53,770 nt of DNA. Source: a virus (lineage: Duplodnaviria; Caudoviricetes). Position numbers and translations under genes: made by a program. Numbering within the stretch: the stretch's first letter is position 1; each line of letters begins with the position of its first letter. Shown piece after piece: positions 2 to 4,025 of this stretch. The notes beneath the pieces are model-generated. The model was not told where the DNA came from. It saw only the letters and a program-made list of their open reading frames with translations, and made no database searches. The stretch lies in IMG/VR virus record IMGVR_UViG_3300009684_001705, positions 1-53,770 of that record; one strand, given 5' to 3'.

Positions 2-77
2 TGGTGCTACCTGTCGGATTCGAACTGACGGCCTATGAATTACTAGTTCATTGCTCTACCAACTGAGCTAAGGTAGC
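2..77 (-). tRNA. tRNA-Thr(AGT)
   Basis: Cloverleaf on revcomp; anticodon arm ATGAA-CT AGT AA-TTCAT; G1-C72/C2-G71; encoded CCA. Confidence 0.9.
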
Positions 78-83
78 AAACTT

Positions 84-203
84 TTAAAATACGCTATAAA
101 CAAAATACCCAATGATACCAAGGAAAATAGTATACCCTGACAATAAAGCTAGGTATTCATATGGAGCTGTCTTATTAAAGATCTTAGTCGGTGTCATTTG
201 CAT
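84..203 (-). CDS. small membrane protein (39 aa, not in ORF track)
   Basis: MQMTPTKIFNKTAPYEYLALLSGYTIFLGIIGYFVYSVF; AAAGGA RBS upstream; one hydrophobic segment; fills a tRNA spacer. Confidence 0.65.
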   Translation of the reverse strand: MQMTPTKIFNKTAPYEYLALLSGYTIFLGIIGYFVYSVF

Positions 204-229
204 TTTGGTTTCCTTTGCTGTTATAATAT

Positions 230-307
230 TGGTGCCCTCCCTCGGATTCGAACCGAGAACCTCTTGCTTCTAAGGCAAGCACCTCTAACCAGTTGGGCCA
301 GGAGGGC
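230..307 (-). tRNA. tRNA-Leu(TAG), short variable loop
   Basis: CTTGC-CT TAG AA-GCAAG; T arm CTCGG-TTCGAAT-CCGAG; about 5-nt variable loop; CCA. Confidence 0.85.
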
Positions 308-312
308 AATAG

Positions 313-387
313 TGGAGCGGAGTACAGGATTCGAACCTGCGACGAACAGCTTGGAAGGCTGACACTCTACCACTGAGTTAACTCCGC
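313..387 (-). tRNA. tRNA-Gly(TCC)
   Basis: Cloverleaf, loop CT TCC AA, U73 CCA. Confidence 0.95.
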
Positions 388-395
388 ATAAAAGT

Positions 396-470
396 TGGAG
401 CGGGCAATCGGACTCGAACCGACGACATCTTCGTTGGCAACGAAGTGCTCTACCACTGAGCTATACCCGC
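396..470 (-). tRNA. tRNA-Gly(GCC)
   Basis: CTTCG-TT GCC AA-CGAAG, CCA. Confidence 0.95.
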
Positions 471-475
471 ATAAA

Positions 476-552
476 TGGTGATTGAGGAAGGACTTGAACC
501 CTCAACATCCGGTTTCGAAGACCGGCGCTCTATCCAGTTGAGCTACTCAATC
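476..552 (-). tRNA. tRNA-Arg(TCG)
   Basis: CCGGT-CT TCG AA-ACCGG, CCA. Confidence 0.93.
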
Positions 553-556
553 AATA

Positions 557-631
557 TGGAGGTGCTTCCCAGAGTCGAACTGGGTTCTCAAGGATTTGCA
601 GTCCCGCAACTTACCGTCCGCCCCAAGCACC
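557..631 (-). tRNA. tRNA-Cys(GCA)
   Basis: Loop CT GCA AA, U73 CCA; D arm atypical. Confidence 0.85.
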
Positions 632-645
632 ATAATGTTATTTAT

Positions 646-721
646 TGGATCCGGAGGATGGACTCGAACCACCGACATACAGATTCAGAGTCTGTCGTTC
701 TACCAACTGAACTACTCCGGA
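646..721 (-). tRNA. tRNA-Gln(CTG)
   Basis: ACAGA-CT CTG AA-TCTGT, U1-A72, CCA. Confidence 0.93.
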
Positions 722-727
722 ATAAAA

Positions 728-804
728 TGGCGACCTCGACCGGACTCGAACCGGCGACTTCTAGCGTGACAGGCTAGCACTCTAACCAACTGAGCTACGA
801 GGCC
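728..804 (-). tRNA. tRNA-Asp(GTC)
   Basis: CTAGC-CT GTC AC-GCTAG, G73 CCA. Confidence 0.95.
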
Positions 805-809
805 AAACT

Positions 810-970
810 CGCACTGGTTACTACAATCCAGCTTCACTCTATCGCGGTGAAAGATTAATTGAGATTAAGATCGAATCAGCTAAATGGACTCCAGTGGCCA
901 CACACTATACCCGAAGATGGCGGCTGACTCCACGATCGCCGGCGAAAGAGAGGTTCTCATCTCCCCCCTT
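810..970 (-). ncRNA. candidate structured RNA in tRNA array
   Basis: GC-rich spacer with nested stems CACTGG/CCAGTG, AGTCCA/TGGATT, TTCAC/GTGAA, CGGC/GCCG; no ORF. Confidence 0.45.
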
Positions 971-977
971 TAAATAT

Positions 978-1055
978 TGGAAACGGGAGTGGGATTCGAA
1001 CACCACGATTTTCAGTTTATGAGACTGACGGGAACGACCTCTTCCCTATCCCGCT
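978..1055 (-). tRNA. tRNA with CAT anticodon (Met-like), atypical
   Basis: TCAGT-CT CAT AA-ACTGA; bulged T stem; A1-U72; CCA. Confidence 0.8.
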
Positions 1056-1059
1056 ATAA

Positions 1060-1133
1060 TGGTGCCCCAACGAGGAATCGAACCCCGGACGACTGATTAC
1101 AAAACAGTTGTTATACCATTTAACTATAAGGGC
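1060..1133 (-). tRNA. tRNA-Thr(TGT)
   Basis: Loop TT TGT AA, CCA. Confidence 0.92.
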
Positions 1134-1211
1134 GAATAAGTGATAGTTCCGATATCTCCCATCGTCACTAACAACCGTTGAGTATCAGATGCCCCCGATA
1201 CTGTTTGCCTT

Positions 1212-1287
1212 TGGTGGAGACATGCGGGATCGAACCGCAGACCTTCTGAATGCAAATCAGACGCTCTCCCAACTGAGCTATGTCCCC
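1212..1287 (-). tRNA. tRNA-Ala(TGC)
   Basis: GGGGAC acceptor with G3-U70, TGC anticodon, CCA. Confidence 0.95.
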
Positions 1288-1292
1288 AATAA

Positions 1293-1368
1293 TGGTACCC
1301 GGTGACGGGATTGAACCGCCGACAATCTCCGTGTAAAGGAGGCGCTACTACCGCTGAGCTAACCGGGC
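1293..1368 (-). tRNA. tRNA-Val(TAC)
   Basis: Loop TT TAC AC, CCA. Confidence 0.93.
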
Positions 1369-1376
1369 GAACTAAT

Positions 1377-1513
1377 CTAACATTAAAGATTCACAGTCCT
1401 TAATGTTAGCAACTCTATCCTCGTTGCCTCACTATCACTTGTTCCGCTGATATGGCAGTTGTGAACCTGCTTTCTCAGCCTCACTCAATGAGGGTCCATC
1501 CAACGAAGATGAG
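1377..1513 (-). ncRNA. candidate pseudoknotted ncRNA
   Basis: Five to six stems; loop GTTCACAA complementary to loop CTGTGAA; a G-U pair supports the minus strand. Confidence 0.6.
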
Positions 1514-1519
1514 TTAATT

Positions 1520-1595
1520 TGGCTCCCCGACCAGGGCTCGAACCTGGGACATTCTGATTAACAGTCAGACGCTCTACCAACTGAGCTATCGGGAA
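1520..1595 (-). tRNA. tRNA-Asn(GTT)
   Basis: TCTGA-CT GTT AA-TCAGA, G73 CCA. Confidence 0.95.
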
Positions 1596-1599
1596 AAAC

Positions 1600-3120
1600 T
1601 CATAGTATACTTTTTTTATACCTATCAAGATATTCATTAAATGGTTTTTGTATATCATATCTAAATGGTAAACCTTTTTTACCACTTTCACGAATATCTT
1701 TTATCAATGTTTTAATATCATATCCACTATTATAAAGATATGGCAAAGAAAACGCACCACCAATTCGGTTAGCTCTTTCCATCGTAAAAGTTCTTGATAA
1801 TTCTAAAACTTCTTCATAAGAAGACCATGGACTAGTCCAATTTCTTGGATTATCGTTTGGTAAAACATAGTCTTTAAATGGATCGTTTCTAGATTTATTT
1901 ATCTCGTTTTTATCTTTATTTTTTACATATAAGACAAATGCAGTATATGCATAATGGTCCAGATAATATCTGCCTTCAATACTGTTTAACCACTCATATG
2001 TTTCGATCATATGTGATATTGGTTCTTTGGGCAAACCAGCGATAAACAATCCAGTAAAAATAGCTTCATCTTCAAAAACATCTCTCAATATTTCTAAAGA
2101 TTTTAGAAGCCTAACTTTATCAGTTACTTTACCGATAAATGGTCCTGATTCTTTATATAAACTTTCAATACCGAAATTAGCCCCAATCATACCAGATTCT
2201 TTTAAAAGAATCGCTTGTTCTTTGGTTCGAATAGTATCTAATCTAGCATATCCAGTCCACTTAAAATCAATACCAGTTTTATTCCTGACATCAATTAAGT
2301 ATCTGATTTTCTCGGGTGTATCATTAACGATATTATCAGTTAATGTATAAAAGTCGATATTGAAGTTTTTATGGTTTTCAATAATTTCTTTTTCAAAACT
2401 ATCATATGATCTTGTATATTCGTTTTTCTTTTTTCCTAATGCAGCGTAATCACAAAACGAACAACTGAATATGCATCCAGCAGCAACTTCTGTACATATG
2501 CTTTCGTTAGGAAAAATTTTATCATCTAAAATATATGTCGAAGCACAATCACTAAAATCAAATAAATCATCAGTGCGTAAAATAGGTTTACCGTTAATGA
2601 TACTAATTTCTAATGGTTCTTCATTACATATTTTTTCTATAATATCAGGATTATTACCAATAACAAAATATGTTACATACTTTGATAATAAATCAAAACC
2701 CATAATATCTTTTTTTCTTTTCATGGCAATAGAAGTTATTTCCCAGCCACCCAGAATATATTTGAAATTATTCGCTTCACATATTTTTCCTATGTTCAAC
2801 AGGAACAGTATGGTTTTTAATCCCCATACTCTAGTTATGTCTTCAAATTCTTTTGATGGAAGTTTAAACTTTTTATTTTTTCTATCGACACCAGCAAGAA
2901 AAGAAGTGCTAACACAAATAAGAATTTCTTCATTATTAGAAAAATCAGAAACAATTTTATTAAGTTCATCATAAGAAAAATTAGTGCAATGGTGTATCTG
3001 TTTTACTTCAAAGTTTTTTTTACGTAAAGCATATGCAATTCTTGAAATAGATGCGCTTTTAAGCGGCATAGATTCTAGAGTTTTAAAATCGCCAAATATC
3101 AATATCTTTTTAATCATCAT
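1600..3120 (-). CDS. radical SAM protein with probable N-terminal B12-binding-like domain
   Basis: CIFSCSFC (CxxxCxxC), TDN, YARLD, FGIESL, IAGLP motifs; about 200-aa N-terminal domain. Confidence 0.85.
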   Translation of the reverse strand: MMIKKILIFGDFKTLESMPLKSASISRIAYALRKKNFEVKQIHHCTNFSYDELNKIVSDFSNNEEILICVSTSFLAGVDRKNKKFKLPSKEFEDITRVWGLKTILFLLNIGKICEANNFKYILGGWEITSIAMKRKKDIMGFDLLSKYVTYFVIGNNPDIIEKICNEEPLEISIINGKPILRTDDLFDFSDCASTYILDDKIFPNESICTEVAAGCIFSCSFCDYAALGKKKNEYTRSYDSFEKEIIENHKNFNIDFYTLTDNIVNDTPEKIRYLIDVRNKTGIDFKWTGYARLDTIRTKEQAILLKESGMIGANFGIESLYKESGPFIGKVTDKVRLLKSLEILRDVFEDEAIFTGLFIAGLPKEPISHMIETYEWLNSIEGRYYLDHYAYTAFVLYVKNKDKNEINKSRNDPFKDYVLPNDNPRNWTSPWSSYEEVLELSRTFTMERANRIGGAFSLPYLYNSGYDIKTLIKDIRESGKKGLPFRYDIQKPFNEYLDRYKKSIL

Positions 3121-3152
3121 ATTATCCTGTTTTTATTATTTAGCAGGATTTT

Positions 3153-3228
3153 TGGTGAACCATGAAAGATTCGAACTTTCGACAAAGAGATTAAGAGTCT
3201 CCTGCTCTACCAGCTGAGCTAATGGTCC
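3153..3228 (-). tRNA. tRNA-Lys(CTT)
   Basis: GAGA-CT CTT AA-TCTC, CCA. Confidence 0.93.
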
Positions 3229-3236
3229 GTAAAGAT

Positions 3237-3309
3237 TTGCCGTATAGGATTTGCACCTATCTCTCACCCGACTCCGCAGATGTGTCCTAACTTATAGACG
3301 AACGGCAAA
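3237..3309 (-). ncRNA. tRNA-like RNA / pseudo-tRNA related to tRNA-Glu
   Basis: Cloverleaf with TTGCCGT/ACGGCAA acceptor, Glu-like D arm, T arm ATAGG-TGCAAAT-CCTAT, non-canonical anticodon arm, no CCA. Confidence 0.7.
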
Positions 3310-3312
3310 AAT

Positions 3313-3387
3313 TGGTAGGGCGTAGGAGAGTCGAACTCCTCTAACAGGAATGAAAATCCTGGATCCTAACCGATAGACGAACGCCCC
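3313..3387 (-). tRNA. tRNA-Glu(TTC)
   Basis: CAGGA-TT TTC AT-TCCTG, CCA. Confidence 0.93.
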
Positions 3388-3394
3388 AAATAGC

Positions 3395-3508
3395 TCCGGT
3401 CACTATCGTAGTCCGGCAACGGATGGTTATTTAAGTGTCTCTCATTGATGCTGCAGCTTGAGAGAGAATCATTTACCATCACCCTAGTCTGTTTCAACAC
3501 TAAAGGGC
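3395..3508 (-). ncRNA. candidate three-hairpin RNA
   Basis: Stems CCCT..AGT/ACTAGGG, GATGGT..TCTCTCA/TGAGAGA..ACCATC, CCGG/CCGG. Confidence 0.45.
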
Positions 3509-3514
3509 ACGTAT

Positions 3515-3604
3515 TGGCGGAAGAGGTAGGATTCGAACCCACGGTACCTTGCGGTACGTCGCATTTCAAGTGCGGTGCCTTAAACCAGACTCGGCCACTC
3601 TTCC
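3515..3604 (-). tRNA. tRNA-Ser(TGA)
   Basis: Long variable arm GTACC-GCAA-GGTAC, TGA anticodon, G73 CCA. Confidence 0.95.
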
Positions 3605-3611
3605 GTATATT

Positions 3612-3688
<77 letters not shown>

Positions 3689-3693
3689 ATTAT

Positions 3694-3768
3694 TGGTTGG
3701 CGCAGAAGGTAACGATCCTTCCACCCCTGTCTTATCAGGACAGTGCTCTTCCTCTGAGCTATGCGCCA
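3694..3768 (-). tRNA. tRNA-Ile(GAT)
   Basis: CTGTC-CT GAT AA-GACAG; variant T loop ATCGTTA; CCA. Confidence 0.88.
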
Positions 3769-3774
3769 GTATAA

Positions 3775-3850
3775 TGGTGGACACTCTGGGACTCGAACCC
3801 AGGACCATCAGATTAAAAGTCCGATGCTCTACCAACTGAGCTAAGTGTCC
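3775..3850 (-). tRNA. tRNA-Lys(TTT)
   Basis: Loop CT TTT AA, CCA. Confidence 0.95.
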
Positions 3851-3986: not shown

Positions 3987-4025
3987 ATTATACCCTAGAT
4001 AGAAACCTAAGTCAACAGTTATTTT
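3987..4025 (-). promoter_or_regulatory. sigma70-type promoter of tRNA array
   Basis: AAAATAACTG-TTGACT-17 nt-TATAAT. Confidence 0.85.

Follow-up and report, generated by a model that had tools for sequence, protein, structure and literature searches.

The transfer RNA (tRNA) cluster of phage T4 is also the source of the species 1 and species 2 RNAs, which are made from it by tRNA processing. Their genes, rnaC and rnaD, adjoin tRNA-Arg in the T4 record, where they are annotated as 'small, stable RNA' with no function given, and excerpts of PMC2330249 report that 'RNA species I and II' were mapped in the T4 tRNA region. Phages furthermore carry the structured RNAs GOLLD and ROOL, which excerpts of PMC12286853 describe as unexplained in function, often located near tRNA islands, dependent on RNA-RNA contacts for their assembly and, in the case of GOLLD, represented by lake-derived members. 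Here we describe a 151-nucleotide (nt) element that occupies the entire spacer between a tRNA-Asn and a tRNA-Val gene (1369..1519, minus strand, as bounded by the ARAGORN gene ends) in the IMG/VR virus record IMGVR_UViG_3300009684_001705 of an uncultured phage. The whole record, 53,770 bases with a completeness estimate of 33%, was analysed and is referred to as the window. The element is present as a single copy, is slightly wider than the interval 1377-1513 assigned to it in a preliminary description of this DNA, and is numbered such that nt i equals window position 1520-i. We read it as an accessory small-RNA cassette that sits in one junction of a tRNA operon and is released by tRNA processing like the T4 species 1 and 2 RNAs, and assign this reading a rough probability of 0.58.

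The element is real, strongly folded and RNA-strand-specific. The minus-strand RNA has a minimum free energy (MFE) of -54.1 kcal/mol (z -5.51), a stability not reached by any of 200 dinucleotide shuffles; the same holds for the copy found in the related tRNA array L023 (z -6.87, 0 of 200 shuffles). The opposite (plus) strand reaches an MFE of -41.9 kcal/mol, which leaves the sense strand better by 12 kcal/mol, and three G.U pairs lie within confident helices on the tRNA strand. The preliminary description had proposed a structure at the RNA level, on the tRNA-coding strand and wall to wall between two tRNA genes, and in these respects it was borne out.

Overall, a 107-nt rod is followed without a linker by a 13-base-pair (bp) hairpin of 33 nt, leaving only 3 nt unpaired at the 5' end, counted from the tRNA-Asn CCA, and 8 nt at the 3' end, up to tRNA-Val. 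All parts named below are encoded on the minus strand. The base of the rod is a long-range lower stem of 16 bp, formed by a 5' arm (nt 4-19, 1501..1516) and a 3' arm (nt 94-110 with A104 bulged, 1410..1426) in the MFE, centroid and two-sequence consensus folds alike, with pair probabilities of 0.77-1.00 and mean values of 0.95-1.00. It leads into a one-sided 7-nt bulge, GAUGGAC (nt 20-26, 1494..1500), which is unpaired in the consensus fold, identical in L023 and a possible hinge of the rod. The upper rod (nt 27-93, 1427..1493) comprises a middle helix, helix 41-45/70-74 and an apical hairpin at nt 50-65. The middle helix is ambiguous in the window, where 27-34/86-93 competes with the alternative 29-33/81-85 (p 0.30 versus 0.67), an alternative that is abolished by the L023 substitution U83>A. 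The apical loop GUUCACAA (nt 54-61, 1459..1466), 8 nt on a 4-bp stem, holds the letters UUCACA, is closed as a hairpin loop in all folds and has the same letters in L023. Abutting the rod, the 3' hairpin (1377..1409) consists of a 13-bp stem (nt 111-123/131-143, pair probabilities 0.92-1.00) and the 7-nt loop CUGUGAA (nt 124-130, 1390..1396), for which the letters of L023 and of contigs from sequencing runs give CCGUGAA in the other two haplotypes.

The fold differs in part from the six stems of the preliminary description, although all stem letters quoted there are present on the minus strand, at CAUC 9-12/GAUG 20-23, CCUCA 27-31/UGAGG 37-41, GCUGA 41-45/UCAGC 70-74, GCAG 50-53/CUGC 62-65 enclosing GUUCACAA, GCAAC 93-97/GUUGC 107-111 and in the 13-bp hairpin. 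GCUGA/UCAGC, GCAG/CUGC and the 13-bp hairpin are retained with a mean p of 0.99 each, whereas CAUC/GAUG, CCUCA/UGAGG and GCAAC/GUUGC (p 0.000-0.001) are displaced because the 16-bp stem, absent from that description, takes their letters. The complete six-stem structure evaluates to -33.3 kcal/mol, as compared to the MFE of -54.1 kcal/mol.

No Rfam family matches the element. Among the 4227 models of Rfam 15 (including GOLLD, ROOL, T-box, small ribozymes, tmRNA, 6S and Y RNA-like models), only tRNAs were found in the window at the gathering threshold. When the limit was relaxed to E<=10 over positions 780-1620, the sole overlap with the element was snoU54 (1362-1429, E 1.5), whose 17.2 bits fall well short of the threshold of 35 and mark a chance-level match. 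GOLLD and ROOL themselves scored neither at gathering level in the window nor at E<=10 over 780-1620; with lengths of 500-800+ nt and conserved, elaborate folds they also differ from an element of 151 nt restricted to one lineage. Nor does the spacer conceal a tRNA gene, as ARAGORN places none of its tRNAs in 1369-1519 and the Rfam tRNA model finds nothing there at E<=10. Inspection by eye revealed just frames of 3-4 codons after the AUGs of the element. A CRISPR-repeat mimic, a pseudo-antitoxin and a CsrA-type sponge were also weighed as possible roles; the GGA count of the element is, by rough estimate, near expectation, and the element is not repeated. A search of open-access full text without supplements found no paper on this element or on small structured spacers in T4-type arrays.

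The position of the element bears on the way it may be produced. It is directly preceded by tRNA-Asn (GTT, encoded CCA; 1520..1595, minus strand, ARAGORN; Rfam tRNA 67.1 bits) and directly followed by tRNA-Val (TAC; 1293..1368, minus strand, ARAGORN; Rfam tRNA 50.4 bits), two of the 19 tRNA genes that fill the left end of the window at 2-3850 and lie on the minus strand throughout, as called by ARAGORN and matched 19 times by the Rfam tRNA model. A consensus scan of 1369-1519 revealed no promoter-like and no terminator-like site inside the element; the 13-bp hairpin is AU-rich and followed by AUUAGUUC, and so lacks the GC-rich hairpin and U tract of an intrinsic terminator. A strong match to a sigma-70-like promoter, TTGACT-17-TATAAT (3987..4015, minus strand), is located just ahead of the array's first tRNA and is, on the strength of a consensus match at 11 of 12 positions only, the likely start of the transcript carrying the element. 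For an element that lies wall to wall between tRNA genes and carries no signals to start or end its own transcription, release by tRNA processing is to be expected. It would be co-transcribed with the tRNAs from upstream promoters, and RNase P, acting as in the general pathway of tRNA maturation, would cut at the 5' end of tRNA-Val and thereby create the 3' end of the element, 8 nt past its last stem. The endo- and exonucleases that form the 3' end of tRNA-Asn would set its 5' end, 3 nt before the first stem. The predicted product is an RNA of ~150 nt, nearly all of it base-paired and for that reason probably long-lived.

To place the element among its relatives, 49 IMG/VR stretches with related arrays were fetched by a conserved tRNA-Val pattern. 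Blastn located the element in 1 of 50 loci, at L023:3372-3522, with 94.7% identity over 150 nt. The covariance model R1, built from the window and L023 and run over 522,620 bases from 51 sources, likewise recovered these two only, that is 1 of the 49 related-array loci, and its next matches (E 1.9 and 6.7) fell on an ordinary hairpin and on coding sequence. With blastn, the element had no counterpart among 50,697 phage records, and a 4-kb query against the phage collection aligned in tRNA-sized pieces only. Exact-pattern scans of IMG/VR with three stretches of the element returned L023 and two matches in sequence that by eye looks open and coding, while such scans gave two chance matches in JGI metagenomes and none in GTDB genomes. 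In an Rfam scan of 11 related loci, the best 150 of 204 matches were all tRNA, and among the spacers the loop hexamers and the bulge GAUGGAC occur at about chance frequency, with no k-mer linking the element to any other. Contigs from four DNA sequencing runs were either identical to the window (X3 and X6) or represented a second haplotype (X4 and X7). Inside the element, the only differences listed for that haplotype are nt 151 C>U and nt 125 U>C, the latter being A>G at window 1395 on the plus strand. The element is thus far a lineage-restricted orphan.

The L023 copy allowed us to ask how the fold tolerates substitution. Four of its nine differences lie in the 38 confident pairs, and three of these keep the pair: nt 13 U>C turns U.G into C-G (lower stem, with G100), nt 95 A>G turns A-U into G.U (lower stem, with U18) and nt 121 G>A turns G.U into A-U (3' hairpin, with U133). 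The fourth, U70>A, is accommodated together with G75>U by a slide of the 5-bp helix of one register, to 40-44/71-75. The remaining differences affect internal loops (nt 47 A>G and nt 83 U>A), the hairpin loop (nt 125 U>C) and the 3' tail (nt 151 C>U). By chance, at least three of four such changes would preserve pairing with a probability of 0.02-0.11, which varies with the assumed transition bias. With 9/151 changed positions (6.0%), the element has moreover diverged less than the fourfold sites of six neighbouring open reading frames (ORFs; 27/247, 10.9%; binomial P 0.027). The fold is strand-specific and appears to be under selection, and the element looks mildly constrained, the two formal tests being only marginal.

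How dispensable the element is becomes apparent from its junction in other phages. In 23 arrays with tRNA-Asn directly before tRNA-Val (the window included, one duplicate locus dropped), the junction measures 4-7 nt and is AU-rich in 15, and holds a spacer of 68-173 nt in the other 8. These eight long spacers fall into mutually non-matching clusters (E<=1e-4), and the linkers at both ends of the fillers are AU-rich, like the empty junctions. Because 15 of the 23 junctions lack such a spacer, the element is an accessory insert that the flanking tRNAs do not need. In a rival explanation, a functionless or selfish structured insert, or a recombination scar, has come to rest harmlessly in a permissive AU-rich junction. 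The empty junctions and the unrelated fillers at the same site fit it, as does the restriction of the element to the window, L023 and near-identical metagenome contigs, with no further copy in the pattern scans of IMG/VR, JGI metagenomes and GTDB genomes. Several spacer families also occupy different junctions in different arrays, and the overall divergence of the element equals the genome average. Against it speak a structure specific to the RNA strand, helix substitutions that keep pairing and a divergence of about half the fourfold-site rate; the element is also present in one copy per genome, and no terminal repeats were noticed at the junction ends, which were inspected by eye only. These points weaken the explanation and do no more than that, because a selfish element could also keep its own structure. 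We regard it as unlikely but still worth serious consideration.

The accessory-cassette reading draws further on T4. The preliminary description had compared the element to the unexplained stable RNAs of the T4 tRNA cluster, and the likeness is apt: rnaC and rnaD are small non-coding RNAs of 139 and 119 nt, as compared to 151 nt here, and like the element they abut tRNA genes in a T4-type phage, are encoded on the same strand as these and have no signals of their own. rnaC is also strongly folded (z -4.57), whereas rnaD is not unusually stable (z -0.83). If the reading holds, riders of this kind are not confined to T4 but are carried also by uncultured T4-type phages distant from it. The differences are equally clear. 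rnaC and rnaD lie after the last tRNA and not between two tRNAs; rnaC resembles a tRNA in that it possesses a canonical T arm and closes in an acceptor-like manner, and the element shows neither feature. Homology to rnaC or rnaD was found neither by blastn over the phage records nor with R1 on the T4 region L054 at E<=10. Several further points weigh against a processed and selected small RNA. The RNA, its ends and the roles of the nucleases are predictions from the DNA sequence. Only one diverged homolog and one near-identical haplotype were found, the selection tests are marginal (P 0.02-0.11 and 0.027), none of 47 pairs has changed on both sides between the window and L023, and the element diverges like the flanking tRNA genes and in line with the genome-average identity to L023 of 94-95%.

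Upstream of tRNA-Asn the array is interrupted by a gene for a radical S-adenosylmethionine (radical-SAM) protein of 506 amino acids (1600-3120, minus strand; Pfam PF04055, E 2.1e-12), which may be a tRNA-modifying enzyme. A relative with 58% (tblastn) to 60% (alignment) identity is found at the same array site in L002 (L002:5001-6542). In L023 the gene is missing and the gap between tRNA-Lys(CTT) and tRNA-Asn measures 18 nt. A tie between the element and this gene was considered and rejected, as in L023 the element is present and the gene missing, while L002 shows the reverse. The same distribution bears on another explanation, namely that the structure is a processing site of RNase III type that splits the operon transcript, or a barrier to exonucleases that guards a neighbouring RNA. 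The lower stem and the 13-bp hairpin, abutting without a linker, could stack into ~29 pairs, the transcription unit also includes, further upstream, the 1.5-kb radical-SAM gene, and two stems around a bulge recall in outline the RNase III sites of phage T7. The T4 species 1 RNA, too, is reportedly cut by RNase III in vitro. As L023 nevertheless keeps the element without the upstream gene, L002 has the gene without the element and most arrays are processed without any such site, we consider this explanation improbable.

The loops of the element suggest yet another function. As stated in the preliminary description, UGUGAA (125-130) and UUCACA (55-60) are complementary over 6 Watson-Crick pairs, and the two loops concerned are the only hairpin loops of the fold. 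One may imagine an RNA that kisses itself, mimics or recognises a His anticodon loop and acts in trans as a decoy or a binder of tRNA-His. When the unpaired letters were permuted with the structure held fixed, 5 of 5000 permutations reached 6 bp and 32 of 5000 reached 5 bp; the calculated loop duplex amounts to -5.8 kcal/mol. The same test on 179 inter-tRNA spacers with at least two hairpin loops from the 49 related arrays ranked the element first and its L023 copy second. Both results favour the idea of a contact, yet the spacer class as a whole shows no enrichment (6/179 at p<=0.05), and because a best p of ~0.001 among ~179 tests is expected in about one such set in six, the complementarity is only suggestive. 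Only one of the 12 loop letters has changed, by U125>C, which costs a pair and has no compensating change, so that two of the three natural haplotypes carry a 5-bp version (-4.7 kcal/mol). Covariation, by which the pseudoknot was to be checked, was not observed, as no compensatory change occurs among the available sequences.

Geometrically, the contact of the apical loop may close the molecule into a paperclip. By helix counting the arms are of similar length (~19 bp plus internal loops from hinge to apex, ~29 bp for lower stem plus hairpin), and folding back at the bulge could bring the two loops together. Kissing complexes such as ColE1 RNA I/RNA II or tRNA pairs with complementary anticodons are experimentally established and intermolecular. 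The element likewise has two loops of 7-8 nt with 6 contiguous Watson-Crick complements, but here the contact is a sequence possibility, shrinks to 5 bp in two of three haplotypes and needs a sharp bend of the rod. We find it very improbable that a paperclip RNA, whose apical loop (UUCACAA) kisses its own 3' loop or pairs with the phage tRNA-His, serves as a switch, sponge or decoy.

For the imitation of tRNA-His, the preliminary description had relied on the loop CUGUGAA having the form of a His anticodon loop. The letters do follow the form C-U-NNN-A-A, which is found in 13 of the 24 anticodon loops of L023, and a called tRNA-His of L039, like a cloverleaf in L044 missed by ARAGORN, has exactly these letters in its anticodon loop, all of which supports mimicry. 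U33 is universal in anticodon loops, and this letter is not kept across the haplotypes of the element: it is C in L023 and in the X4 and X7 contigs, that is in two of three haplotypes. The stem of 13 bp instead of 5 speaks against a His-anticodon mimic as well, as does the fact that neither ARAGORN nor the Rfam tRNA model finds anything tRNA-like, be it D, T or acceptor features. A codon-anticodon mimic akin to pseudoknot I (PKI) of the dicistrovirus internal ribosome entry site (IRES) had also been proposed. The CAC-A loop of the element could indeed pair with a GUG-type loop, as in that IRES or in the specifier loop of a T-box, but there is no Rfam match to either, and downstream lies only a tRNA and no gene to regulate.

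A pairing partner in trans could be the phage tRNA-His itself. The apical loop pairs with 7 of 7 letters of the L023 tRNA-His loop UUGUGGG (5 Watson-Crick and 2 G.U pairs), as opposed to at most 4 positions in the other 23 tRNAs of L023, which again favours mimicry; in a permutation control, on the other hand, 240 of 5000 permuted loops matched some anticodon loop equally well. In L023 the tRNA-His gene is located at L023:5524-5599, directly after tRNA-Thr(AGT). Because the window stops at tRNA-Thr (2-77), its own tRNA-His, if any, would lie just past the contig end. In favour, phage tRNA sets are known to counter tRNA-cleaving defences, according to excerpts of PMC11555353 and PMC13728456. 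Were the mimicry real, the element could work as a switch responsive to tRNA-His. It could also act as a sponge or decoy that occupies host factors recognising GUG-type anticodon loops, for example anticodon nucleases. In either case it would represent an RNA-based companion of the phage tRNA counter-defence set. Given the loss of U33, the shortened loop helix, the permutation results, the long stem and the lack of covariation, we lend this idea little credence.

Descent from a decayed tRNA-His, considered in view of L007, where tRNA-His stands directly before tRNA-Val, was rejected. The element shows no similarity to 19 called tRNA-His genes beyond the loop, and its T-like and anticodon-like hairpins stand in the wrong order for a tRNA.

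More generally, the CUNNNAA form was found in 12 of 90 seven-nt hairpin loops of spacers from loci L002-L051, where 0.6 were expected. Five of the other eleven spacers were inspected and show cloverleaf folds of 85-104 nt. Judged by these folds, they are probably tRNA genes missed by ARAGORN, of His type at L044:5976-6063 and of Tyr type at L002:4454-4557 and L043:11828-11913.

The window belongs to a T4-type myovirus, as indicated by PHROGs matches to the clamp loader, an SbcCD-like nuclease, a helicase, the major head protein, scaffold and portal, and further to sheath, large terminase and sheath stabiliser, which are T4-type core genes. The DNA runs holding this phage are labelled as freshwater or lake metagenomes; of the 24 runs listed, none is registered as RNA.

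Turning to inter-tRNA spacers as a class, we collected 205 spacers of 35-320 nt from the related arrays, which group into 30 clusters of more than one member and 109 singletons; some families occur at different junctions in different arrays. Folding of 172 of 201 spacers against mononucleotide shuffles gave a median z of -1.63; z was below -2 in 42% and below -3 in 27%. In 141 of the 172 the sense strand was the more stable one. The related arrays hence hold scores of unrelated, strongly folded RNA-strand spacer families that are gained and lost at tRNA junctions, and the tRNA arrays of these freshwater T4-type phages seem to hold a pool of small RNAs that have yet to be described. Because folded spacers come and go at junctions and some of them covary, tRNA operons may serve as a general base from which small phage RNAs arise, which would borrow the tRNA-processing enzymes for their maturation.

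The spacer before tRNA-Asp in the same array (window 805-977, minus strand) appears more promising as a new RNA family than the Asn-Val element. Across six arrays, 12 of its 30 predicted pairs show compensatory changes. Copies of this ~170-nt family occur at L023:4306-4489, L003:8909-9076, L004:13735-13910, L011:3446-3613 and L014:7621-7789, always directly upstream of tRNA-Asp and with a near-invariant 3' hairpin, CUGGAU.G.AGUAACCAG. The spacer has no Rfam match at E<=10.

Several other spacers of these arrays deserve mention. A 127-nt spacer after tRNA-Ser (window 3388-3514, minus strand) is conserved in three arrays, the others being L023:2916-3042 and L004:13059-13185. By eye it forms a hairpin in which the loop CUACGAUAGUG is constant while the stem shows compensatory changes, with CCGG/CCGG (window), CCAAA/UUUGG (L023) and CCAGA/UUCUGG (L004). 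An RNA of ~100 nt with a nearly invariant core lies at L002:7413-7515, L021:13248-13349 and L025:1980-2083; its 13-bp closing stem varies yet, by eye, stays paired, and its three junctions (Asn>Val, Val>Ala and Val>Lys) are always beside tRNA-Val. The 78-nt Ala>Thr spacer of the window (1134-1211, minus strand) shares a 3' hairpin with the Thr>Met spacer at L013:2074-2175, where comparison of UAGUGA...UAUCAC with CAGUGA...UGUCAC shows, again by eye, one pair changed on both sides.

An 84-nt spacer (window 3229-3312, minus strand; L023:3118-3201) was called neither by ARAGORN nor by the Rfam tRNA model at E<=5. By eye it has D-arm letters like those of the preceding tRNA-Glu, a T-arm-like AUAGGUGCAAAUCCUAU and acceptor-like ends, and it looks like a decayed or aberrant tRNA. 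The spacer between tRNA-Leu and tRNA-Thr, finally, contains a 39-codon ORF with a GGA-rich leader (window 84-203, minus strand), which recurs at L023:5321-5440 with 35 of 39 residues identical. Its predicted product, MQMTPTKIFNKTAPYEYLALLSGYTIFLGIIGYFVYSVF, is hydrophobic in the C-terminal half, so that this ORF is probably the gene of a small membrane protein inside the array.

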